Positions 4,662 through 16,770 of a stretch of DNA of 24,000 nt are shown here, in pieces; position 1 is the stretch's first letter; every line of letters begins with the position of its first letter. The notes under the pieces are model-generated. The model made no database searches and was not told where the DNA came from. It worked only from the letters and a program-made list of their open reading frames with translations. The position numbers and the translations under genes are program-made. Location of the stretch: assembly GCA_018713725.1 (NCBI GenBank), contig DVOJ01000014.1, forward strand, positions 39,839 through 63,838, in the 5' to 3' direction. Source of the stretch: Candidatus Caccopulliclostridium gallistercoris (lineage in GTDB: Bacteria > Bacillota > Clostridia > Christensenellales > UBA1242).

Positions 4662-5693
4662 ATGAGTTCAAATTACTTTTTAGATAGAGACAAGAATAAC
4701 ATCGAAAAGCTTTCTAGATATTTAGAGAGCTTACCTAAGTTCTGTTATAATTATTTCTTAGATTTAGAGCCTTATACGTCCACACTTTCAAGGCTTAACT
4801 ATGCCATGGATTTAAGAGTGTTTTTTGACTTTTTGGCAAAGTATAAATTTATGTGCAAACCTACCGATATAACGGAAGAACATTTAAATAAAGTTACTTC
4901 GCAGGATATAACGTCCTATTTAAGTTACCTTTCCTACTACACTTTTAATGGAAAAAATTGTAAAAATGGAGAAAAAGGCAAAGCTAGAAAACTTTCTAGC
5001 ATTAGAAGCCTTTTTAAATATCTCTTTAATAAAGAAAAAATTTCTTCTAATGTAGCTAGTAAAGTAGCTACGCCTAAAATTCACTCTAAAGACATTTTAA
5101 GGCTTGAAGTAGACGAGGTTGGCAGACTAATAAATCAAGTAGAAAACCCAAGCCTTCTCACAAAACAGCAACAAGGTTTTAACAAGCACACGCAAGAGCG
5201 TGACGTAGCTATGCTTACCCTATTTTTAGGCACAGGTATTCGTGTTAGCGAATGTGTTGGCTTAAATGTTGAAGATATAGATTTTGACAACAACGCCTTT
5301 AAAATTACGCGCAAAGGCGGAAATCAAGTTATTTTATATTTTGGTGAGGAAGTAAAAGAAGCACTTTTAAAGTGGCTAGAAGTAAGAAATCAGAAAAAAC
5401 TTCCGGAAAGCGAAAAAGCGCTATTTATATCTTTACAAAATAGGCGCATAACAGTTCGAGCAGTTGAAAACCTGGTAAAAAAATATTCTCGAGCTGTTAC
5501 CCCATTAAAAAAAATTTCTCCGCACAAACTAAGAAGCACATACGGCACCAACCTTTATAGAGAAACTGGCGATATTTACATAGTAGCCGACGTTCTTGGC
5601 CATAAGGACGTTAACACAACTAGAAAGCACTACGCAGCAATCAGCGAAGACAAACGCCGCTCTGTTGCAGACATTGTAAAATTAAGAAATTAA
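4662..5693 (+). CDS. Tyrosine recombinase, XerC/XerD family
   Basis: 343 aa with an N-terminal SAM-like core-binding domain (LNYAMDLRVFFDFL). The catalytic set is intact: Arg in GTGIRVSE, HKLRST (HxxR), LGHKDVNTT (His), RKHY (Tyr nucleophile). Confidence 0.85.
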   Translation: MSSNYFLDRDKNNIEKLSRYLESLPKFCYNYFLDLEPYTSTLSRLNYAMDLRVFFDFLAKYKFMCKPTDITEEHLNKVTSQDITSYLSYLSYYTFNGKNCKNGEKGKARKLSSIRSLFKYLFNKEKISSNVASKVATPKIHSKDILRLEVDEVGRLINQVENPSLLTKQQQGFNKHTQERDVAMLTLFLGTGIRVSECVGLNVEDIDFDNNAFKITRKGGNQVILYFGEEVKEALLKWLEVRNQKKLPESEKALFISLQNRRITVRAVENLVKKYSRAVTPLKKISPHKLRSTYGTNLYRETGDIYIVADVLGHKDVNTTRKHYAAISEDKRRSVADIVKLRN

Positions 5694-5751: not shown

Positions 5752-6366
5752 ATGAAAAAAAGCGAAGTTAATCTTGCTAAACTTTTAACATACTTAAAAA
5801 ACTACCAGTGTCAACATGGATACACGCCTAGTTATAGAGAAATGCAAAGCTATTTAGGGCTAAAATCTGTAAACACTGTAGATTATTACATAAATAAATT
5901 AGTTGAAAGAGATTTAATAAGAAAAAACCCATTAAGAAAAAGGGCCATTGAAATTGTAGACGACACAAAAATGCTAAAAAATAGCATGGAAATGACAAGG
6001 CTGCCACTTTTAGGAAAAATTGCTGGTGGGCAACCAATATTAGCTGAAGAAAATTTAATTGAAACCTATGCAATTTCAAAAAACTTTTTTGGAACTGAAC
6101 AAGATTTATTTCTTTTAAAAGTTGTTGGCGATAGCATGAAAGAAGGCGGCATAGCAAATGGCGATACTATTATAGTAAAGGTTCAAAACACAGCTGAAGA
6201 TGGAGATATAGTAGTTGCAAGAGTAGACTCTGGTACAACAGTTAAAAAATTTTATAGAGAAAAAAATGGCTACAGATTGCAGCCGCAAAATCAGTTATAC
6301 TTCCCTATTTATACTCACAAAGTTGAAATACTAGGTAAAGTTATAGGCGTAATAAAAAGGTTTTAA
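5752..6366 (+). CDS. lexA: LexA repressor (SOS regulator, S24 self-cleaving peptidase)
   Basis: 204 aa with an N-terminal winged-helix domain. It has an Ala-Gly cleavage site (KIAGGQP), the Ser nucleophile in VVGDSM, and Lys in TVKKF. Confidence 0.9.
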   Translation: MKKSEVNLAKLLTYLKNYQCQHGYTPSYREMQSYLGLKSVNTVDYYINKLVERDLIRKNPLRKRAIEIVDDTKMLKNSMEMTRLPLLGKIAGGQPILAEENLIETYAISKNFFGTEQDLFLLKVVGDSMKEGGIANGDTIIVKVQNTAEDGDIVVARVDSGTTVKKFYREKNGYRLQPQNQLYFPIYTHKVEILGKVIGVIKRF

Positions 6367-6402: not shown

Positions 6403-7164
6403 TTATTTTGACTGTTCGCCTTCTTTAACTTTTTTAGCTTCTTTAGGAAGCTCTTTTTTAATGTTAGAAATTTTAGTTTTTTCAGGAGCTACTACAGTTT
6501 CAACAACCTTCAAACCTTCTTCCCTAGCAATTTCTAGCATTCTTTGGCTTTCCATATGCATTAAGAAAACTTGTTGTTTCTTAATTTTATTCTTCTTTAT
6601 AATCTCTTTAACCTTCTTGATATCCATGTGAAGCTTGTTGCCAGACTCTGAGCAATCTAAATAATATTCGTCGTAGTTTGGAATATCAAAAGGAATATTA
6701 GAGCAATCTCCACTATAAAATATTTTCTTATTATTAAAGTTAATTTCAAGAGCGCAAGAATCCATATCCTTTGCGTGCGGAACTAAAAGCACGTTAACCC
6801 ATTTAAAGTTTTTGGATAGCGGTTCAACAAAGTTAAAATCTCTACCTTCCTTTAACCCTAATTTTTCTACCTTTCCACCTTGTAAGCTTATGGTATTTAA
6901 AAGATAAGGTTTAATTTTTAATTCATCGTTACAATAATCAAAGAAAGCTGGAAGGTCTGCAACGTGGTCGTTATGACAGTGTGTTACAATTTGATAAACC
7001 TTTTTAACGCCTTTCATAATGCCAGACCTTTTAATTGCATCTAAAACGCCGTTTCCGCAATCTATTAAAACAAGTACGCTGCCCTTTTTAAAATACGCAC
7101 TATTGTTTACTTCCGTTTTATTGAAAGCAGAGCCCCTGCCTAAAAATTTTAATGTTTGACTCAT
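6403..7164 (-). CDS. Metallo-beta-lactamase-fold hydrolase
   Basis: Has the HCHNDH (HxHxDH) metal motif, an N-terminal LKFLGRGSAF...LIDCG beta-lactamase-fold start, and a Lys/Glu-rich C-terminal tail. I chose the start at ATG 7164, preceded by GGAGAAAATT. Confidence 0.8.
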   Translation of the reverse strand: MSQTLKFLGRGSAFNKTEVNNSAYFKKGSVLVLIDCGNGVLDAIKRSGIMKGVKKVYQIVTHCHNDHVADLPAFFDYCNDELKIKPYLLNTISLQGGKVEKLGLKEGRDFNFVEPLSKNFKWVNVLLVPHAKDMDSCALEINFNNKKIFYSGDCSNIPFDIPNYDEYYLDCSESGNKLHMDIKKVKEIIKKNKIKKQQVFLMHMESQRMLEIAREEGLKVVETVVAPEKTKISNIKKELPKEAKKVKEGEQSK

Positions 7165-7182
7165 AATTTTCTCCTTGGAATA

Positions 7183-7212
7183 ATTATAAACCATTCAAAT
7201 TTGATTTGTCAA
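7183..7212 (-). promoter_or_regulatory. Sigma-A-type promoter for the MBL hydrolase gene
   Basis: On the minus strand: TTGACA (7212..7207), 18 nt, TATAAT (7188..7183), then a leader with an AAGGAG Shine-Dalgarno. Confidence 0.6.
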
Positions 7213-7260: not shown

Positions 7261-8412
7261 TTACCATTTTGATATAACTTTTTTAATGCTATCTTTATAA
7301 GATAACGCTTTTATATCTTCTTTTATAATTAAATTAATCTCTTCCTTAACCTGACCATCTTTTATAACTGTTAAAGTTCCTATTCTGTCACCAGCCTTAA
7401 TTGGAGCCGAAACATTTTCATCAATGTTTATTTCTGTTTTAAAAGCGTCGTCTTCCCCTTTCTTACAAAGTCCGTAATAAGATTTTTCCGCATAGTAGTC
7501 TGCTTCATTTATTTTTGCTTTCTTTACTTCAATTTTTCCTAATGGCATTTCACTTGAAACAATGTTTTTATTTTCAAAATTTGCAAAACCATAGTTGAAT
7601 AAACTTGCACTTTCGTTAAATCTGTCTTGCCCTGTTTTTGCGCCTATAACAACGCTTATAAGCCTCATATCTCCACGTTTTGCCGAAGCGCAAAGGCAGT
7701 ACCCAGCTTCGCTTGTAGAGCCCGTTTTTCCAGCGTCACAACCTTTATAATATCTTGTAAGTTTATTAGTGTTTACAAGTTCTGTTTTTCTACCCGATGG
7801 GTGCACAAGTTCGTCCATCCAAATAGTGCTATATTTAAAATAGATATCATGTTTTAAAAGTTCTTTCATTAAAGTTGACACGTCGCGCGCTGAAGAGTAT
7901 TGCTCTGGCTCAGGAAGTCCTGTACAGTTAGCATAAAGCGTATTCGTCATGCCAAGATTTTTAGCCCTTTCATTCATCTTTTTAACAAAGGTGTCTTCTG
8001 AACCTGAAATGTGTTCAGCTAATGCTACGCTGGCATCGTTAGCAGACGCCATAATAACGCTTTTAATCATTTGCTCCGCAGAATACGTAACATATGGGTC
8101 TATAAACACCTGCGAGCCACCCATACCTGATGCATTTTCCGTTGTAGTTATTTTTGTATCTAAGGCTAAATTACCCTTATCCATCTCTTCAAAAGTTAAA
8201 AGAAGAGTCATCATTTTAACCATACTAGCTATTGGAAGCTTTTCATCGGCGTTGTTTTCTTCTAAAACTTCGCCCGAAGAATAGTCGATAAGTATGCTAG
8301 ATTTTGCCGTAATAGGCTCGTCAGCATAAGCAAAATTAGCTTGCGTAATACCGCTTAATGGTATTATGCAAATGCATAGTACACAACATATTGTGATTAA
8401 TAACTTTTTCAC
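7261..8412 (-). CDS. D-alanyl-D-alanine carboxypeptidase (S11, PBP5-type; sporulation DacB/DacF-like)
   Basis: Motifs SMVKM (SxxK), SAND (SxN) and KTGST (KTG), plus a C-terminal PBP5 beta-sandwich region. I moved the start to GTG 8412, preceded by GAGGTG, which gives the classic signal peptide VKKLLITICCVLCICIIPLSGITQANFAYA. Confidence 0.85.
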   Translation of the reverse strand: MKKLLITICCVLCICIIPLSGITQANFAYADEPITAKSSILIDYSSGEVLEENNADEKLPIASMVKMMTLLLTFEEMDKGNLALDTKITTTENASGMGGSQVFIDPYVTYSAEQMIKSVIMASANDASVALAEHISGSEDTFVKKMNERAKNLGMTNTLYANCTGLPEPEQYSSARDVSTLMKELLKHDIYFKYSTIWMDELVHPSGRKTELVNTNKLTRYYKGCDAGKTGSTSEAGYCLCASAKRGDMRLISVVIGAKTGQDRFNESASLFNYGFANFENKNIVSSEMPLGKIEVKKAKINEADYYAEKSYYGLCKKGEDDAFKTEINIDENVSAPIKAGDRIGTLTVIKDGQVKEEINLIIKEDIKALSYKDSIKKVISKW

Positions 8413-8472
8413 TACCCACCTCGAATTTTTATTATTCAAGGTTAGTTTTTTACATTTTTTATATTTTATACA

Positions 8473-9258
8473 TCAAAAATTTATTCTCTTTAACATTTCT
8501 TCAAATAGTGTTTTAAGTTTAGCACTCATTAATTTACCATTTTTTAACACTTCTTCATGTGTAATAGGTTCTTCTCCAATATCCGCAGCTTTATTAGTAA
8601 CGCCAGCAACAAGAAAAACCTTCATATTTAAGCTATAAGCCTGTAAAACATCTAAAACAGGACTCATAGACACCGTATCCACCCCTATTGTTCTTAGCAT
8701 TTTAATTTCCGCAGGTGTTTCATAAGTTGGGCCAGTAAGCTGAGCATGCACGCCTTCTTTTAATTCTAAGTTATATTCTACACTTATCTTCTTTGCTATA
8801 TCTAAAATTTCTTTATCGTAAACGTCTTTTAAATCTATAAACCGAATAGGCTTTTCTGCAATAAGCGGATTTTGCCCTGTAAGATTTATATGGTCGTGAA
8901 TTAAAACTATATCCGTAGGTTTAAAACTTTTATTCACAGCACCGCTAGCCGTAGACATTAAAATTAGTTTTACGCCTAGTTTAGAGATAATTTTATATAG
9001 AAGCCTTATATTATCAAGGTTTCCACTTTCATAGTAATGTAGTCTATTAAAAACTAAAATCCTTTTATTATCAAAGTCCCCAAATAGAAACTTTCTAGAA
9101 TGCCCTTCAACATAGTTATACTTTATACCTAGGCTATTATAAGTAACTTCATGAACGTTACTAAGCTTTGGCAGAGCGTCGCCAAAACCAGAGCCTAAAA
9201 CAATAGCTATATCCGCTCTATCTTTAATTTTCTTAACAATTTTATCTACTCTATCCAT
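8473..9258 (-). CDS. punA: Purine nucleoside phosphorylase (PNP/MTAP trimeric family)
   Basis: Motifs: GSGFG, HSRKF-type phosphate site, STASGAVN, and LTGPTYETPAEIKMLRTIGVDTVSMS, which is the PunA-type signature. I chose the start at ATG 9258 because GTG 9276 lies inside the predicted promoter. Confidence 0.85.
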   Translation of the reverse strand: MDRVDKIVKKIKDRADIAIVLGSGFGDALPKLSNVHEVTYNSLGIKYNYVEGHSRKFLFGDFDNKRILVFNRLHYYESGNLDNIRLLYKIISKLGVKLILMSTASGAVNKSFKPTDIVLIHDHINLTGQNPLIAEKPIRFIDLKDVYDKEILDIAKKISVEYNLELKEGVHAQLTGPTYETPAEIKMLRTIGVDTVSMSPVLDVLQAYSLNMKVFLVAGVTNKAADIGEEPITHEEVLKNGKLMSAKLKTLFEEMLKRINF

Positions 9259-9264
9259 AACTAA

Positions 9265-9292
9265 TTTATACCACACTTTTTATTTTTAGCAA
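9265..9292 (-). promoter_or_regulatory. Sigma-A-type extended -10 promoter for punA; predicts a leaderless mRNA
   Basis: On the minus strand: TTGCTA (9292..9287), 16 nt, TGgTATAAA (-10 at 9270..9265), then 6 nt (ttagtt) before ATG at 9258. No Shine-Dalgarno. Confidence 0.55.
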
Positions 9293-11221: not shown

Positions 11222-11258
11222 TACAAAAAATAAAAAATCCATGTTCTTCACATGGATT
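11222..11258 (-). terminator. Intrinsic terminator of recN
   Basis: The minus-strand hairpin AATCCATG-tgaagaa-CATGGATT is followed by TTTTTATTTTTT. Its 5' arm overlaps the recN stop codon. Confidence 0.8.
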
Positions 11259-12954
11259 AAGAAATCTTCTTTTTAAATTCTTCACTATTCTGTTTCAGCT
11301 CTCTAGCGTGCGCTATAGAAGTTTCCGTATTTATAGCACCACCTGTAAGCTGCGCTATTTGTTCTATAATTCTATCTCCGCTAAGCTTTTCAACCGACGT
11401 TTGAGTAGAATTGTTTAAAGTGTTTTTGGTAACATAAATATAACTATCCGCCATAGATGCAACTTGTGGTAAATGTGTTATGCATAGCACTTGGAAGTTT
11501 TTAGAAAGTTTTGCAAGTTTTTCAGCTACTGCATTTCCTATAAGTCCGCTAATTCCTGCATCAACTTCATCGAACACAAGTGTACCAACGCCGTCTTTAT
11601 CAGCTAAAATATTCTTCATTGCAAGCATGAATCTGCTCATTTCTCCGCCGGATATAGTTTTTGAAAGCGGCTTTAAATCTTCTCCTAAATTTGCCGAGAA
11701 TAAAAATTCTACGTTATCAAAGCCCTGCTTTGTAATATCATTCGTATAACTATTAGGCATAATATTAAAGCCAACTTTAAACCTAGCATTTTTCATGCCT
11801 AGTTCGGCAAGTTCCTTGCAAATTTTATCTTCCACTTCAAGGCTTAACTCTCGCCTTTTATTTGATAGGCTTTTGCTTAAATTATAAGCCGTTTGCTCTA
11901 ACTTCTCTTCTTTAAGCGAAAGTTCTTTCAGCTTAGCTTCAGCGTTTTCTAAATTATCTAAGTCGAGTTTAGACTTTTGTAGAAATTTAAATACATCGTC
12001 AAGCGTAGGTCCGTATTTTCTTTTTAAAGATTTTATATGGTCTAAACGTGCGTCCACTTCATTCATTTTTGCTTCATCAAAAACTAAATCGTTAGAAAGC
12101 TTTTTAACTTCTTCTAAAACGTCGTCAAGCTCGTACATAGAACTAGTTAGTCTTTCTATAAGCTCTGGAAATTTATCATTGTATTGAACTATATTTTGTA
12201 AATCGTGAATACCTGCTTTAACATTAGCTAAAACGCCGCTCGAGTCGTCAAAAGCATAAATAAAATTGCTTAAATTTTCAGAAATTCTTTCCGAGCTAGC
12301 GTAAATTTTAAGTTCGTTTTCTAAAAGTTCGTCTTCATTTTCTTTTAGCTTTGCGTTTTCTATTTCAGAAATTTGATAGGATAGCAAGTCTATCATTCTT
12401 TCCCTATTTTCAAAATTTCCGCCAATTAAATTCTTTTCTTCTTGAATTTCTTTTAATTTGTTTAATGTTTCAGCAAGTGCCTTTTTATCTTCAAGAAAAA
12501 TTTCTGGCTTATAGCTTTCAAGCAAAGCTAAATGATTTTTTGCACGAAGCAATACCTGATTTTCATGCTGCCCATAGAAATCTACAAGTGTAGAAGAAAT
12601 TTGTTTAAGCATGTTAAGCGGATATTGTAAACCGTTTATTCTACACTCAGATTTCCCATCTAAGTTAAACGACCTAGTAAATAACAGTATTCCTTCGTCA
12701 TCTATTCCAAGTTCAGTTAAAATATCCGAAGTCTGCTTGCCGTAATCAACAAAAGACGCTTCCACCTTCATTGTATCTTCGCCCGTTCTTATCATAGATT
12801 TAGAAGGTTTATCGCCTAAAACAAAATTTATTGAATCTATTATTATACTTTTGCCCGCGCCAGTTTCTCCAAGCAAAACGTTAAAGCCCTGAGTAAAATC
12901 AAGGCTTATGTCTTTAATTAATGCTACGTTTTTTATCTTTAAAGTTTGAATCAT
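11257..12954 (-). CDS. recN: DNA repair protein RecN (SMC-like ATPase)
   Basis: 565 aa with N-terminal Walker A GETGAGKS, a long central coiled coil, a C-terminal ABC signature (ISGGEMSR) and Walker B (LVFDEVD). Confidence 0.95.
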   Translation of the reverse strand: MIQTLKIKNVALIKDISLDFTQGFNVLLGETGAGKSIIIDSINFVLGDKPSKSMIRTGEDTMKVEASFVDYGKQTSDILTELGIDDEGILLFTRSFNLDGKSECRINGLQYPLNMLKQISSTLVDFYGQHENQVLLRAKNHLALLESYKPEIFLEDKKALAETLNKLKEIQEEKNLIGGNFENRERMIDLLSYQISEIENAKLKENEDELLENELKIYASSERISENLSNFIYAFDDSSGVLANVKAGIHDLQNIVQYNDKFPELIERLTSSMYELDDVLEEVKKLSNDLVFDEAKMNEVDARLDHIKSLKRKYGPTLDDVFKFLQKSKLDLDNLENAEAKLKELSLKEEKLEQTAYNLSKSLSNKRRELSLEVEDKICKELAELGMKNARFKVGFNIMPNSYTNDITKQGFDNVEFLFSANLGEDLKPLSKTISGGEMSRFMLAMKNILADKDGVGTLVFDEVDAGISGLIGNAVAEKLAKLSKNFQVLCITHLPQVASMADSYIYVTKNTLNNSTQTSVEKLSGDRIIEQIAQLTGGAINTETSIAHARELKQNSEEFKKKIS

Positions 12955-12955
12955 A

Positions 12956-13411
12956 TTACACCGATAATTTTAAAAGTGTTTCAGTTGCATTTTGAGCCAT
13001 TCTAAAATCTGGAAGAATTACCATAACGGTATCGTCGCCAGAAACGGAGCCCATAACGCCGTCTAAATTCAATTTATCTATAAGCCCACATATTGCCCCA
13101 GCCATACCTTTTATTGTTTTTATAACAGATAGGTTCTGAGCAGTTTTAATGGAAATAACAGCTTCTTTAAAAACGTTTATGTATTTATTTGAAACAGCTT
13201 GCTCGCCATTGTCTACAATTGAGTATTTATATTTGCCAGTTTCCGCACTCAAAATTTTAATTAAACCAAGCTCTTTTATATCTCTTGAAATAGTTGCTTG
13301 AGTTATATCAAAGTTGGCAGCCCTTAGGGCAGCCACAAGTTCGTCTTGCGTTTCTATCTCTTTTGTAGATATAAGTTCAAGAATTTTAGATTGTCTAGCA
13401 GAACGTGCCAT
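12956..13411 (-). CDS. argR: Arginine repressor ArgR/AhrC
   Basis: 151 aa. The N-terminal winged helix (RQSKILELI...TQDELV..L...G..ITQATISRDIKEL) and the C-terminal oligomerisation/arginine-binding domain (GDDT motif: SVSGDDTVMVI) are both present. The stop is 1 nt from the recN ATG. Confidence 0.9.
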   Translation of the reverse strand: MARSARQSKILELISTKEIETQDELVAALRAANFDITQATISRDIKELGLIKILSAETGKYKYSIVDNGEQAVSNKYINVFKEAVISIKTAQNLSVIKTIKGMAGAICGLIDKLNLDGVMGSVSGDDTVMVILPDFRMAQNATETLLKLSV

Positions 13412-13466
13412 ATAAGCTCCTTACCTCCCTAAACTCCTTTATTTATGCGGATTCTAGCAGTTTTTG

Positions 13467-13484
13467 CATAAATATAAATTCATA
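13467..13484 (-). promoter_or_regulatory. ARG-box-like operator in the argR leader
   Basis: The minus strand reads TATGAAT-TTAT-ATTTATG. This has one mismatch to the core TGAAT-W4-ATTCA of the 18-bp ARG box. Confidence 0.45.
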
Positions 13485-13516
13485 TTTATACAACCCTTTT
13501 CTTGCTTAGTGTGATT

Positions 13517-13545
13517 ATTATACATTAAAATTTATAATTATGCAA
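13517..13545 (-). promoter_or_regulatory. Sigma-A-type promoter for argR-recN
   Basis: On the minus strand: TTGCAT (13545..13540), 17 nt, TATAAT (13522..13517). This gives a leader of about 100 nt ending in GGAGGTAAGGAG before ATG 13411. Confidence 0.6.
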
Positions 13546-13551
13546 GCGATT

Positions 13552-13569
13552 TTTGCATAAATATTCACA
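13552..13569 (-). promoter_or_regulatory. ARG-box-like operator just upstream of the argR -35
   Basis: The minus strand reads TGTGAAT-ATTT-ATGCAAA, with one mismatch to TGAAT-W4-ATTCA. It shares the direct repeat ATTTATGCAAAAA with the box at 13467..13484. Confidence 0.45.
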
Positions 13570-13592
13570 CATTTTTTTATAAAAATTTAGCT

Positions 13593-13610
13593 TTTGAATG
13601 CGTATTCAAA
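13593..13610. promoter_or_regulatory. Palindromic ARG box
   Basis: TTTGAAT-GCGT-ATTCAAA has perfect TGAAT/ATTCA arms. It is embedded in the 22-nt near-perfect palindrome CTTTTGAATGCGTATTCAAAAG (13591..13612). Confidence 0.55.
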
Positions 13611-13645
13611 AGGAATTTATAAAAATACACCGTTATGCAAAGGAC

Positions 13646-13674
13646 TTATAAAAAATTACAGGCCTTTAAGCCTG
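13646..13674 (-). terminator. Weak intrinsic terminator after the oapA-like gene
   Basis: The minus-strand hairpin CAGGC-uuaaag-GCCUG (13674..13659) is followed by TAATTTTTTAT. The stem is only 5 bp, so confidence is modest. Confidence 0.45.
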
Positions 13675-13692
13675 CAACCTTTTTATTTTTAT

Positions 13693-14397
13693 TTAGTTCT
13701 TTTCTTCACTATTAACGTTATTCTCTACTTTCTCTTTCTCGTCTTTTACTTCTGTCTTTTTTGTTTGCTTACCCTTCTTCTTATCTTTCTTATTTCTTGT
13801 AAATATGCTTAAACACTTACCTAATGTTAAAATTACCTTATTGCAATTTTCCATAGAGTAACGTTTAAAAATTGCCTTACCAAAAATTGTAAGACCTGCT
13901 ATAACCGCCGACACAACGGAAGCCATAACTATTTCAAAGGCATCAGTTGAAGCATCAGTTACAATATGATACAAAATTGAAGACCCGCCTGCACCGGCAA
14001 GGATTCCACAAACGTCTCCTAAAACGTCAGCACAAAGTGAAGCTACCCTGTCCGCATTTTTAACTAAAAACAAAGCTTCCTTTGCTCCCCTAACTTTTCT
14101 AGAAGCCATAGCTTTAAAAGGCTCTTCCGTGCAAGACGCCACAGCAACACCTATCATGTCTGTAATTACACTTATAGATATAAACACAAGCACTACGATT
14201 ATAGATATTACTATGCCGGCACTACTCATGGCAAGTTCGCTTAATATGCTAAAACTTAATGACAAAGCTAATGCCAGAAAGAAAATTTTAATCGGCCAAA
14301 TATACCAAGGTTGTTCTTTAGTTTGGGTTTTAACTTTCTTTTTAACCTTGTTAGAATCTCCCTTCTCTTCCTGCTTAGTTTCTTCGTTATTTTTCAT
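13693..14397 (-). CDS. oapA: Four-TM membrane protein immediately downstream of the large ncRNA; probable OLE-associated protein A (OapA)
   Basis: 234 aa with four hydrophobic helices: WYIWPIKIFFLALALSLSFSIL, GIVISIIVVLVFISISVITDMIGVAVA, VASLCADVLGDVCGILAGAGG and EIVMASVVSAVIAGLTIFG. They are flanked by Lys/Glu-rich N- and C-terminal tails. The position directly 3' of the OLE-like RNA matches the published OLE-oapA arrangement. I made the assignment from context and topology, not from alignment. Confidence 0.65.
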   Translation of the reverse strand: MKNNEETKQEEKGDSNKVKKKVKTQTKEQPWYIWPIKIFFLALALSLSFSILSELAMSSAGIVISIIVVLVFISISVITDMIGVAVASCTEEPFKAMASRKVRGAKEALFLVKNADRVASLCADVLGDVCGILAGAGGSSILYHIVTDASTDAFEIVMASVVSAVIAGLTIFGKAIFKRYSMENCNKVILTLGKCLSIFTRNKKDKKKGKQTKKTEVKDEKEKVENNVNSEEKN

Positions 14398-14459
14398 AAT
14401 ACTATTTTATGTTTTTACTTTTTTATATATTAAACCTTTTAAGATTATTTTTAAAGTAG

Positions 14460-15027
14460 GCGAAGGCATTATATTAGGTAAACCTTGCGACATAGGTTCG
14501 GTTGGATTTCCCAAACTTCAAAACCTGGCGTTACCACCATGGAAGTTTCCTATTACTTGAAGCCTTTCACCGAATCGCCACTAAGCTCACACTATAATCC
14601 CCAATATAACTGCGGACTCTTCCGCAATAGCCTAGAAGCTTTCCTTAACAGCTAGCTTTGCTCTTAGCTTAGTTTTGCAACACAAATTTCATTAGCTTAC
14701 TAAAACGCGTCTGGCCAAAAACGCTTAATTTTAGCTTTTTATCAAATCCCAAGTATGCCACTCAAAGCAGGCTACACTGCACACAACTTTTGCGTCGCCT
14801 TGCAGGTTTCTCTCCTAAGAAGTGGAAAAATTCCACCTAGTTAGGTCTCCGCGATAATTGGAACGGATATTGTATGCCATTACAATGCGTCCAAAAATCT
14901 TAACTTCCAGCATCAGTCCCAATTTGGGCAACCAAAACTGACACCAGAAACTTCATAGTTATGCCCTTTGGTGCCTATTTCATCACCTTCTAAACAAAGT
15001 TCGCTGACTAGAATACTACGCCTTCGC
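14460..15027 (-). ncRNA. Large structured ncRNA of about 568 nt, probable OLE (ornate, large, extremophilic) RNA
   Basis: This is the only long stretch with no credible ORF on either strand. By hand count, 14761..14820 has 30/60 G+C, against 16/60 for 15061..15120 in xseB. It has its own promoter. A 10-bp terminal helix pairs GCGAAGGCGU (15027..15018) with AUGCCUUCGC (14469..14460). Internal hairpins: a long irregular one at 14894..14858; CCUAA/UUAGG with GUGG/CCAC at 14845..14814; UGCGGA-AGAG-UCCGCA at 14626..14611; a GNRA hairpin GGUG-GUAA-CGCC at 14538..14527; CUUCAA (14562..14557) pairing with UUGAAG (14521..14516); and a long-range 8-bp helix between 14673..14666 and 14587..14580. The position (xseA-xseB upstream, a 4-TM protein gene and argR-recN downstream) is that reported for OLE RNA. 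Confidence 0.7.
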
Positions 15028-15033
15028 AAGTAT

Positions 15034-15062
15034 ATTATACCACATATTAAAAATAATTGCAA
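15034..15062 (-). promoter_or_regulatory. Near-consensus extended -10 sigma-A promoter driving the OLE-like RNA
   Basis: On the minus strand: TTGCAA (15062..15057), 17 nt, TGgTATAAT (-10 at 15039..15034). The predicted TSS at about 15027 coincides with the first base of the terminal helix. The -35 begins 1 nt after the xseB stop codon. Confidence 0.65.
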
Positions 15063-15063
15063 A

Positions 15064-15267
15064 CTATTCTTCACTAGATAAAAGTTTTTCAAGGTTATCT
15101 CTTATAACTGTAATTTTCCCTTTGCTAGAATTAAATTCTTTGTAAAGTGTTTCTGCAAGCTCACTTCCCCTTTCAAAGAGCTTAGTTCCTTCTTCTAATC
15201 CAATTTTACCAGATTCTAACTTTTCTATTATTTCGTCTAATTCCTTATTTCCTTCTTCAAAAGTCAT
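15064..15267 (-). CDS. xseB: Exodeoxyribonuclease VII small subunit
   Basis: 67-aa helical protein with the XseB pattern FEE...ELE.IV..LE.G...LEE....F..G. A Shine-Dalgarno AGGAGG lies upstream, and the gene sits directly after xseA. Confidence 0.9.
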   Translation of the reverse strand: MTFEEGNKELDEIIEKLESGKIGLEEGTKLFERGSELAETLYKEFNSSKGKITVIRDNLEKLLSSEE

Positions 15268-15269
15268 AT

Positions 15270-16382
15270 CTACCTCCTAACCACATCTATACTGCCATCA
15301 GCTAGCGTTACTAACAAATTCTCCCCTACGCTTGTTTCTTCCACGCTCGTTATAACCTTATCACCTTTACTTACTTTTGCATAGCCAAGCCGCATTATTT
15401 CTTTTGGGTTTAATTTTGAAAGCTTGGCAGTTTTTAGCGACAACATATATTCCCTTTCATTTAAAAAACTTTCTTGAACATTATATAGAAGTTTTAAATT
15501 GTGCACAAATTTAATTTTCAAACCGTTATACAAGTTAGAAGCCGCCCTAGAAAGCCTAGATATTTTATCTATTAAATTATATCTTTTAGACAAAACGTCT
15601 TCCGTAACTAGTTCGGCTGCCGCACTAGGCGTTGGAGCTCGCAAGTCTGATACAAAATCTATAATAGTAAAATCCGTTTCGTGCCCTACTGCAGAAACTA
15701 CGGGCTTATTAGCTGCAAACACCGCTCTTGCAACAACTTCCGTATTAAACGGCTGCAAATCTTCAAGCGAGCCACCGCCACGAGCAACTATCATAACGTC
15801 TACACCATCGTAGTCTGAAAAGAAGTTAATACCTTTAACTATGCTAAGCTCTGCCATAGCACCCTGCACTTTTACTGGATAAAGTACAATATCAACATTT
15901 GGATTTCTTCTTTTTACAATGTTTATAATATCTTGAATTACAGCACCAGTCTCCGAAGTAACCACACCTATTCTTTTAATGCTCTTGGGGTCTATTATCT
16001 TTTTATGTTTAGAATCAAAAAGCCCTTCGTCTTCTAGCGTTTGTTTAAGTTTTAAAAACTGTTCAAACAAATTTCCCATGCCGTAAGGCGTAATTTTATT
16101 TACGTTAAAATTTAGCCTTCCGCCCTTTACGTAATATCTAGGGCTTCCGCGAACTATAACCATATCGCCGTTTCGAACAGACTGCAAATTAGCACCATCA
16201 AAACAAACGCAAGAAAGAAGTGCATTTTCATCTTTTAAACTAAAATACGCTATCCCCCTAGATATAGAAAAATCGGAGACTTCTCCAAAAACACTTATGT
16301 TTTGCAAAAGTTCTTCCGCATCAAAAATTTGTTTAAAATACGTTGAAATCTGAGTAACCGAAATTGCCTTTTCTTCTATCAT
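15270..16382 (-). CDS. xseA: Exodeoxyribonuclease VII large subunit
   Basis: N-terminal OB fold (ISVTQISTYFKQIFD...VFGEVSDFS), then a catalytic core (RIGVVTSETGAVIQDI, ARGGGSLEDL, SAVGHETDFTI.D.V.D.RAPTPSAAAE). I chose the start at ATG 16382, 1 nt after the nusB stop, rather than TTG 16403. Confidence 0.9.
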   Translation of the reverse strand: MIEEKAISVTQISTYFKQIFDAEELLQNISVFGEVSDFSISRGIAYFSLKDENALLSCVCFDGANLQSVRNGDMVIVRGSPRYYVKGGRLNFNVNKITPYGMGNLFEQFLKLKQTLEDEGLFDSKHKKIIDPKSIKRIGVVTSETGAVIQDIINIVKRRNPNVDIVLYPVKVQGAMAELSIVKGINFFSDYDGVDVMIVARGGGSLEDLQPFNTEVVARAVFAANKPVVSAVGHETDFTIIDFVSDLRAPTPSAAAELVTEDVLSKRYNLIDKISRLSRAASNLYNGLKIKFVHNLKLLYNVQESFLNEREYMLSLKTAKLSKLNPKEIMRLGYAKVSKGDKVITSVEETSVGENLLVTLADGSIDVVRR

Positions 16383-16383
16383 A

Positions 16384-16770
16384 TTATTTAACAACCTTTG
16401 CAAGTACGCCGTTTATAAAGCTACCGCTTTTATCTGTGGAATATTTTTTGGCAAGGTTTAAAACTTCGTTTATAACAACAGCAGGCGGAGTTTTTACAAA
16501 CTTTATTTCACTAACCGCAAGATATAAAAGAGCTAAATCTACCTTATAAACCCTATCTAACTCGTAGCCTTCGCAGCATTCTTTTACCGTCTCTTCCACA
16601 TATTTACTGTTGTCTTCAAAAGCCTTTATAAGCTCGTTATAAAAAGCTAAATCTTGCTCGTTTAAAGCCTTCTCTTCGCTTATTGCATTAAAAGACAGAG
16701 AATCATCTCCGTCCTTAAAAAGTTTTTCAAATATTATCTTAAAAGCAAACTCACGCGCGTCTGTACGCAT
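16384..16770 (-). CDS. nusB: Transcription antitermination factor NusB
   Basis: 128 aa. It opens with R..ARE.A...L(F/Y) and has the C-terminal signature (INEVLNLAKKYS...SGSFINGVL). Confidence 0.9.
   Translation of the reverse strand: MRTDAREFAFKIIFEKLFKDGDDSLSFNAISEEKALNEQDLAFYNELIKAFEDNSKYVEETVKECCEGYELDRVYKVDLALLYLAVSEIKFVKTPPAVVINEVLNLAKKYSTDKSGSFINGVLAKVVK

Follow-up and report, generated by a model that had tools for sequence, protein, structure and literature searches.

Comparative sequence analysis identifies a P13-less OLE RNA gene beside oapA in Candidatus Caccopulliclostridium gallistercoris

Identification of the OLE RNA gene

OLE RNA, a class known since 2006 and represented in Rfam, is with hardly any doubt what is encoded between xseB and a membrane-protein gene in Candidatus Caccopulliclostridium gallistercoris. 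The stretch analyzed here, hereafter the window, comprises 24,000 nucleotides (nt) of contig DVOJ01000014.1 (assembly GCA_018713725.1, positions 39,839 to 63,838), and it carries on its minus strand a structured RNA gene of 568 nt that we assign to the OLE family (RF01071), in the trimmed form published as 'variant 1'. An earlier note on this DNA, made from the letters alone, had proposed an OLE-class RNA at this site, and the proposal is borne out both by a full-length match to RF01071 and by an OapA homologue encoded immediately downstream.

The whole window was scanned against Rfam 15, in which the curated gathering score for OLE is 50 bits. OLE was the sole family above its gathering score, with a match at 15040..14447 of the minus strand (344 bits, E 7.6e-98) that covers model positions 1-616 of 616 and is not truncated; this was the check suggested in the earlier note, and it returned the full model. 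Of the 147 model base pairs for which a position in the window could be assigned, 128 (87%) were standard pairs.

Homologues were collected by scanning a conserved-block pattern, GTATNCTAGTCAN{8,24}GAAG, against one genome per species, which gave 120 loci; the pattern is somewhat loose, and about half of these loci were chance matches in non-Bacillota, discarded after nhmmer. Among the pattern loci and four sister contigs, nhmmer detected 53 full-length or nearly full-length OLE homologues, in a range that extends from Bacilli to Clostridia (Alicyclobacillus, Lederbergia, Virgibacillus, Clostridium, Caloramator, Syntrophomonadaceae, and many gut metagenome-assembled genomes, MAGs). The alignment consists of the window and 52 homologues (53 sequences, 52 distinct), locus L004 being left out, with an OLE the same as that of L002. 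About 25% of the alignment columns are invariant, and the window RNA has every one of them, as in GUAU.CUAGUCA, GCCC, GGCAU, GGAG, GUAGC, GAUU, and GGAAA. A large structured RNA of no described class, OLE-like by position only, had been kept as the fallback reading; the probability that we leave to it is negligible, since it is refuted by the E value obtained over the whole RF01071 model and by the sharing of these invariant columns with 52 other OLE RNAs.

Moreover, the consensus structure computed by RNAalifold from the 53 sequences, without reference to Rfam, holds 136 pairs, 100 of them with compensatory changes, and includes P1, P2, and P3, which are unpaired in the Rfam structure line. 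From P1 to P1 the RNA measures 568 nt, against an alignment median of 587 nt (range 547-666). The thermodynamic fold of 15027..14460 (-174.5 kcal/mol, z -2.77) is modestly better than those of shuffled sequences, and shows the terminal helix, the 12-base-pair (bp) P3/P3.1, and most of the family hairpins.

Terminal helix, P2, and P3

A 10-bp helix pairing 15027..15018 with 14469..14460 had been described as closing the RNA, and it is present in both the minimum free energy and the centroid folds. Its outer eight pairs (15027..15020 with 14467..14460) stand, as the covarying P1 of the family: they are kept across the alignment, seven of the eight have changed on both sides among the 52 distinct sequences, and 80% of cells are paired, with far lower values in shuffled- and slid-partner controls. 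The inner two pairs do not stand; they are lineage-specific, their bases belong to other helices, and they are probably not real. Indeed, U15018 covaries with A14628 in P2, a pair that is C-G in 49 sequences and U-A in four, with both sides changed, and 14468/14469 are assigned to a covarying 3' long-range helix.

In the alignment, P2 joins columns 44-47 and 51-55 to columns 584-592, and P3 joins columns 66-72 to columns 552-558, with compensatory changes at every pair. P3 and P3.1 typically total 12 bp, and this helix has been proposed to span the membrane (PMC12265935).

Two internal readings of the structure fared differently. The GNRA-capped stem at 14538..14527 (GGUG-GUAA-CGCC) is present and corresponds to the conserved P14.1 hairpin. 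A long-range 8-bp pairing of 14673..14666 with 14587..14580 is a perfect complement in this sequence, but it is not a helix of the family: among the 53 OLE RNAs tested it is fully paired in this species only, at three of its pairs 42-48 of the 52 distinct sequences do not pair, changes on both sides are seen at only two pairs, in a single sequence each, and some of its nucleotides belong to the base of P9 according to the Rfam model. This complementarity is due to chance.

Promoter, terminator, and transcription unit

The sigma-A-type promoter upstream of the RNA (Table 1) agrees with the consensus at 10 of 12 positions and has the TG extension; no better sigma-70-type site occurs in the region. 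It ends 6 nt upstream of P1, with a predicted +1 at about G15027; hence, in silico, the near-consensus promoter TTGCAA-17-TGgTATAAT lies where it had been placed, with a predicted start on the first base of the helix. Most of the 53 OLE loci have TATAAT-like boxes, the majority of them TG-extended, at a distance from P1 of no more than about 25 nt on its upstream side. Both the window promoter and these boxes agree with what is known from B. halodurans, where the proximal OLE promoter is active and the RNA 5' ends lie near the start of P1 (PMC3413148).

The terminator scan found no terminator-like site between OLE and oapA. The only element shaped like an intrinsic terminator follows the oapA stop; its hairpin (-17.7 kcal/mol, z -3.56) was also flagged on the plus strand, and the shape suggests a bidirectional terminator. 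With this as the sole element of its kind, ole and oapA appear to form a single transcription unit, roughly 1.4 kb long and separate from argR.

This arrangement could also be read as a structured region that acts only in cis, as a riboswitch- or attenuator-like 5' leader of oapA, and not as a stand-alone RNA. Co-transcription is likely, given that the only terminator-like site comes after oapA, and the A/T-rich 50 nt that lead from the OLE match to the oapA start codon, ATG (14398-14446), show no recognizable Shine-Dalgarno sequence. However, a leader alone does not account for a match at 344 bits over the full length of the OLE family, nor for the retention of the loops used in RNA-RNA dimerization; in addition, the OLE of B. 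halodurans is a single, exceptionally stable, and abundant RNA (PMC3413148). We find the leader-only reading to be without support and very improbable, and consider that the element may play a dual role, as a stable RNA and as the leader of oapA.

OapA, the downstream membrane protein

The gene next to the RNA had been called oapA from its predicted four transmembrane (TM) segments, and this call agrees with the comparative data: in 51 of the 53 loci, tblastn detected a homologue as the next gene after OLE and in the same orientation, with E values outside the species from 1e-11 to 1e-52. By hydropathy, the hydrophobic segments fall at residues ~31-53, 60-88, 118-140, and 155-177; a K/R-rich loop, KAMASRKVRGAKEALFLVKNADR, separates segments 2 and 3, and the tails are basic. 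Compared with the CNNM family (PF01595), the protein scores 21.1 bits (E 2.6e-4), below the gathering score of 28.4. On these predicted features, the four-segment membrane protein of 234 amino acids is OapA, the protein known to bind OLE RNA and carry it to the membrane, for which a distant relationship to CNNM/MpfA has been proposed (PMC12265935).

No solved structure related to OapA was found (best E 0.19, irrelevant), and NCBIfam holds no OapA model, giving the 234-amino-acid protein only a sub-threshold 'tandem five-TM' match. The Lys/Glu-rich N- and C-terminal tails were considered as a lineage-specific substitute for OapB and rejected, basic tails being common in the OapA proteins of many clades.

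At two full-length OLE loci, tblastn detected no oapA in the roughly 2 kb that follow the RNA, one in a Vallitaleaceae MAG (L099, 5357-5931) and the other in a Bacillota MAG (L055, 1864-2452).

Divergence of the window copy and loss of P13

Rfam scores were compared for 18 OLE copies against the same RF01071 model. Nine OLEs from cultured genera and environmental MAGs scored 495-551 bits and six from gut Clostridia-type genomes 403-443 bits; the closest relatives, L013 and L019, scored 374 and 359 bits, and the 344 bits of the window copy are the lowest of all. The main cause of this low score is a clean deletion of P13. In 46 of 53 relatives the site holds a bulged, GNRA-capped hairpin of 22-24 nt, and here, as in L013 and L019, the region is reduced to 5 nt (GAAAG in the window), so that 21 model positions become 3 nt. 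The P13 of B. halodurans carries a GNRA loop and a single-nucleotide bulge; OapB binds there with high affinity, and the hairpin forms one arm of a four-way junction (PMC7936274). Consequently, where P13 is absent, the four-way junction P12.2/P13/P14/P15 becomes a three-way junction of P12.2, P14, and P15.

The earlier note had expected any novelty to be limited to how divergent or minimal this copy is, and this expectation holds, since the trimmed, P13-less form has already been published as 'variant 1' (PMC11332333). Variant 1 OLEs score between full-length OLE and variant 2 and in many cases are without the terminal part of P13 to which OapB binds, which shows that the P13 hairpin is not required for membership in the class (PMC11332333). 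They have been described from uncultured gut Clostridia, typically of the order TANB77, that are largely without OapB (YbzG) and OapC (YbxF) (Fernando and Breaker 2024, mSphere, PMC11332333). Like these RNAs, the window copy is without the P13-end OapB site, has a shortened P7, keeps oapA, and belongs to an uncultured gut Clostridia host known from metagenome assemblies. Pfam labels revealed no KOW/SBB or L7Ae-type protein in the 24-kb window or in 20 kb from each of the four sister contigs.

Several points weigh against the reading of this element as a working variant 1 OLE RNA. Neither P8 (34 vs. a median of 34) nor P9 (101 vs. 97) is shortened, which is unlike variant 1, and the variant 1 band of 310-390, which would include our 344 bits, comes from the authors' own covariance model and not from Rfam's. 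The L4 loop and the P4a palindrome, both implicated in OapA docking or dimerization, diverge. With no terminator between OLE and oapA, either processing must yield the mature RNA or OLE must double as the oapA leader. Finally, transcript ends, stability, dimerization, OapA binding, and membrane localization are all extrapolated from other species. We regard the variant 1 assignment as good but not perfect.

Strain variation and selection on structure

In sister contigs from other metagenomes, OapA is 100% identical to that of the window, and the RNA differs. Inside the RNA body, strain L002 differs from the window by seven substitutions. Four of them account for two compensatory exchanges in P14.1 (U-A to A-U and G-C to A-U); a fifth changes a U.G of P3 to C-G, a sixth restores pairing at an A.C mismatch of P9 (now G-C), and the seventh disrupts a pair. 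The same strain has four more substitutions just upstream of the RNA, in the stretch from the -10 box to P1. In strain L003, a pair at the base of P7 has undergone a compensatory change from U-A to C-G. Such compensatory changes between strains point to selection on structure, which argues for a functional OLE copy in the window and against a decaying one.

That the locus might be a non-functional OLE relic is suggested by the lowest Rfam score among the copies compared, by the loss of P13 with divergence of the L4 loop and the P4a palindrome, and by the existence of apparently defective OLE genes in rare organisms (PMC11332333). However, those published defective copies occur where OapA is missing, and here oapA is intact and invariant between strains. 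Moreover, the between-strain substitutions are mostly compensatory or pair-improving, the promoter is near consensus, most of the model pairs are intact, and L013 and L019, from two other species, share this architecture. We consider a relic even less credible than an RNA that acts as a leader only.

Loops, domain 2, and the proposed particle

The A-rich core of the L4 loop, CUAAAAAU, occurs in 42 of the 53 sequences and is replaced by UGAAAUAG only in the window species; L4 forms dimer bridge B1 in the structures solved by cryo-electron microscopy (cryo-EM) (PMC12286853, PMC12265935). In our survey of the dimerization loops, GCCCA, AAUGGCAU, and GGCC are present and the L4 core is changed, so one of the four contacts may differ. 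The AAUGGCAU loop (L6.1) is the kissing partner of the GCCCA loop (L5.1) in the dimer (PMC12265935). Palindromes of the GGCC type cap P9 in nearly all sequences of the alignment, and L9.3 is known to covary among GGCC, GAUC, and AGCU (PMC12286853). Regarding the palindromic OapA contact sites, the UCUAG/CUAG pairing of P2 is intact and the AUCGAU of P4a, found in 41 of 53 sequences, has been replaced; the P4a region is one of two mapped sites of contact with OapA (PMC12265935). In domain 2, the long-range helices (model positions 442-597) show strong covariation between columns 614-656 and 744-781, and the UGAAG/GGAGA elements of the k-turn region are kept in the window copy.

As a separate observation, five OLEs of the Oscillospiraceae or Sporobacter type (L116, L102, L042, L118, and L009) have an extra GC-rich hairpin directly after the long P5 (columns 163-204), and these also depart from the AUCGAU palindrome; the two features may be linked.

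By analogy with OLE RNAs of H. halodurans and Clostridium, the RNA of about 570 nt would accumulate as a stable species and would form homodimers by way of its kissing loops (GCCCA with AAUGGCAU, and GGCC), each of which this copy retains. OapA, a CNNM/MpfA-related protein, would bind the RNA and bring it to the membrane, where P3 may cross the bilayer, and the resulting ribonucleoprotein (RNP) would buffer the cell against alcohols, cold, excess Mg2+, and poor carbon sources. We know of no biochemical activity assigned to the OLE RNP in any member of the class. This scheme draws on H. halodurans genetics and on cryo-EM of Clostridium OLE (PMC3413148, PMC12286853, PMC12265935).

Judging from the sequence, the P13-less particle most likely works without high-affinity OapB binding and would use, at most, the weaker GNRA site of P14.1. 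It has also been considered that in the window species, L013, and L019 the OLE particle has been rebuilt, and not merely trimmed, as a natural minimal RNP that is possibly OapB-free, which we think unlikely. If this were true, the loss of P13, the non-A-rich L4, and the lost P4a palindrome could together alter both the dimer interface and the way in which OapA docks, and a minimal OLE RNP would be useful for structural work on the unresolved domain 2.

Comparison with known systems

The trimmed OLE RNA of the window shares with the full-length OLEs of Halalkalibacterium halodurans, Clostridium acetobutylicum, and C. botulinum the elements P1-P12.2, P14, P14.1, and P15, the conserved blocks, the 12-bp P3/P3.1, and the GCCCA, AAUGGCAU, and GGCC loops, together with a proximal promoter with its start at P1, oapA directly downstream, and the nusB-xseA-xseB ... 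argR-recN neighborhood. Unlike them, it is without P13 and has a three-way junction, an L4 loop reading AUGAAAUAGG in place of the CUAAAAAU core, and AACUAU in P4a; it is also shorter than the 587-nt median, scores 344 bits compared with 495-551, and lacks ispA and dxs at its locus. OLE 'variant 2', from the RF39 clade, is likewise a reduced OLE of uncultured gut Bacillota with oapA kept, but it is without P7 and P8 (PMC11332333), both of which are present here.

Among proteins, the divalent-cation transporters MpfA/CNNM (DUF21) share with the window OapA a weak PF01595 match; unlike them, OapA has neither CBS nor CorC/HlyC domains and is always paired with OLE RNA. GOLLD, ROOL, and the raiA motif are also large structured non-coding RNAs, with homo-oligomers known for GOLLD and ROOL (PMC12286853), and the window RNA has no sequence or structure match to any of the three.

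Both the class and the sub-variant of the window RNA are already known, the trimmed form having been described in 2024. In this context, the locus serves as a positive control, in that the class, the promoter, and the terminal helix of a structured RNA of 570 nt were recognizable from raw sequence alone. The compact, P13-less ole-oapA unit, running from promoter to terminator and accompanied by strain variants, could offer a small system in which to ask what portions of domain 2, and which of the contacts with OapA, the particle can do without. A residual curiosity is whether the changes in L4, P4a, and P13 mark a rebuilt, OapB-free minimal particle.

Table 1. Features of the ole-oapA locus and of one neighboring gene cluster, in window coordinates.
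Feature	Coordinates	Strand	Remarks
RF01071 match, including unstructured model flanks	14447..15040	minus	
OLE RNA core, first to last P1 base	14460..15027	minus	568 nt
Promoter, sigma-A type	-35, 15062..15057; -10, 15042..15034	minus	-35 TTGCAA, 17-nt spacer, extended -10 TGgTATAAT
P1, 5' strand	15020..15027	minus	GCGAAGGC; columns 36-43 pair with 782-789
P1, 3' strand	14460..14467	minus	GCCUUCGC
P2, 5' strand (GUAG..UCUAG)	15008..15019	minus	within the most conserved block, GUAUUCUAGUCA; pairs with 14627..14635
P2, 3' strand	14627..14635	minus	CUAGGCUAU
P3/P3.1, 5' strand	14992..15006	minus	CAGC + CUUUGUUU; pairs with 14649..14663, 4 + 8 = 12 bp
P3/P3.1, 3' strand	14649..14663	minus	GAGCAAAG + GCUG
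P4 hairpin (GGUG/CACC)	14970..14987	minus	divergent loop AUGAAAUAGG
P4a region	14954..14963	minus	CAUAACUAUG; AACUAU in place of AUCGAU (family CA[C/U]AUCGAUG)
P5/P5.1 hairpin, long	14905..14949	minus	conserved GCCCA loop at 14929..14925, in 51 of 53 sequences
P6/P6.1 hairpin	14853..14899	minus	conserved AAUGGCAU loop at 14881..14874
P7 hairpin, short	14814..14845	minus	31 nt; family median 42
P8 hairpin	14777..14805	minus	
P9 arm	14667..14768	minus	palindromic GGCC loop at 14716..14713 (self-kissing dimerization loop)
Long-range domain-2 helices, 5' strands	14569..14594	minus	end in P12.2 (UUCGGU, 14574..14569)
Long-range domain-2 helices, 3' strands	14475..14502	minus	pair with 14569..14594
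Site of missing P13	14565..14568	minus	GAAA linker
P14, enclosing P14.1	14514..14564	minus	GGCUUCAA/UUGAAGUU
P14.1	14542..14524	minus	GUAA tetraloop 14534..14531, bulged A14540
P15 mini-hairpin	14504..14512	minus	GGGAAAUCC; columns 734-735 with 741-742
oapA	13693..14397	minus	234 amino acids; ATG 50 nt after the Rfam match
Intrinsic-terminator-shaped element after oapA stop	13650..13683	minus	AAAAAGGUUGCAGGCUUAAAGGCCUGUAAUUUUUU; A-tract, GC-rich hairpin, U-tract
Metallo-beta-lactamase-fold protein gene	6403-7194	minus	sub-threshold Apyc1 match
S24 repressor gene	5752-6366	plus	
Tyrosine integrase gene	4662-5693	plus	

Locus, host, and neighboring genes

The RNA occupies a gap of 666 nt between the xseB stop at 15064 and the start of the next gene at 14397, in agreement with the gap of about 660 nt without a credible open reading frame (ORF) described in the earlier note. 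Three mechanical ORFs reach into this gap, and all were negative in the Pfam search: those of 59 amino acids (14913..15092, minus) and 56 amino acids (14485..14655, plus), as well as an antisense ORF of 143 amino acids (14129..14560, plus). The G+C content is 42.4% in the RNA, 30.4% in xseB, 35.7% in oapA, and 33.7% in the whole window. The hand counts behind the claim of a G+C content above that of the flanks were reproduced exactly, at 30 of 60 for 14761..14820 and 16 of 60 for the xseB line 15061..15120.

The gene order at the locus is nusB-xseA-xseB-OLE-oapA-argR-recN, and the OLE neighborhood listed in the earlier note is found in part, with nusB, xseA, xseB, oapA, argR, and recN present and ispA and dxs absent. 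The cluster is compacted (12956-16770), with the end of xseB 36 nt before P1 and the start of argR about 1.05 kb after OLE. At other OLE loci (L006-L122), xseB is 1.0-1.9 kb upstream and argR 2.5-4.9 kb downstream; the shorter distances here reflect the absence of ispA, dxs, and other usual intervening genes from the window locus.

The same locus was found in at least 21 metagenome-assembled contigs. The window (G+C 34%) also holds the spoIIIA operon, spoIVB, and asp23, and the closest OLE relatives are from uncultured Clostridia that include sheep-colon MAGs and Candidatus genera named for chicken feces, the latter placed by NCBI taxonomy no more closely than 'Eubacteriales incertae sedis'. 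These features suggest a spore-forming, low-G+C, uncultured gut Clostridia species as the host, with a presumably anaerobic lifestyle. A search of the 24 kb for tRNA and tmRNA genes found none.

The leader of argR contains two direct repeats of about 53 nt (13441-13493 and 13530-13582) that are 72% identical, lie 89 nt apart, and both contain the core TTTTTGCATAAATAT. The sequence TGTGAATATTTATGCAAA (13569..13552, minus strand) is one mismatch away from what we take to be the ARG-box consensus, and the repeats probably reflect autoregulation by ArgR. ArgR has been mentioned as an unpublished OLE partner (PMC12265935).

The longest spoIVB ORF (438 amino acids) has a GTG start and overlaps the end of recN by 29 nt (11257-11285); in three sister contigs spoIVB has 406 amino acids from a later start, which leaves the true start uncertain. 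The window (7261-9276) and L002 (15135-17132) have one ORF for a PNP_UDP_1 phosphorylase-family protein and another for a D-Ala-D-Ala carboxypeptidase (S11), and in L001, L003, and L004 (15140-17137) the two are called as a single fusion of 665 amino acids, either a strain polymorphism or else a difference in gene calling. Beside serS, a metallo-beta-lactamase-fold protein with a sub-threshold match to the anti-Pycsar protein Apyc1 (30.7 bits vs. a cutoff of 50) adjoins a LexA-like S24 repressor and a tyrosine integrase, a cluster that may be the remnant of a small integrated element.

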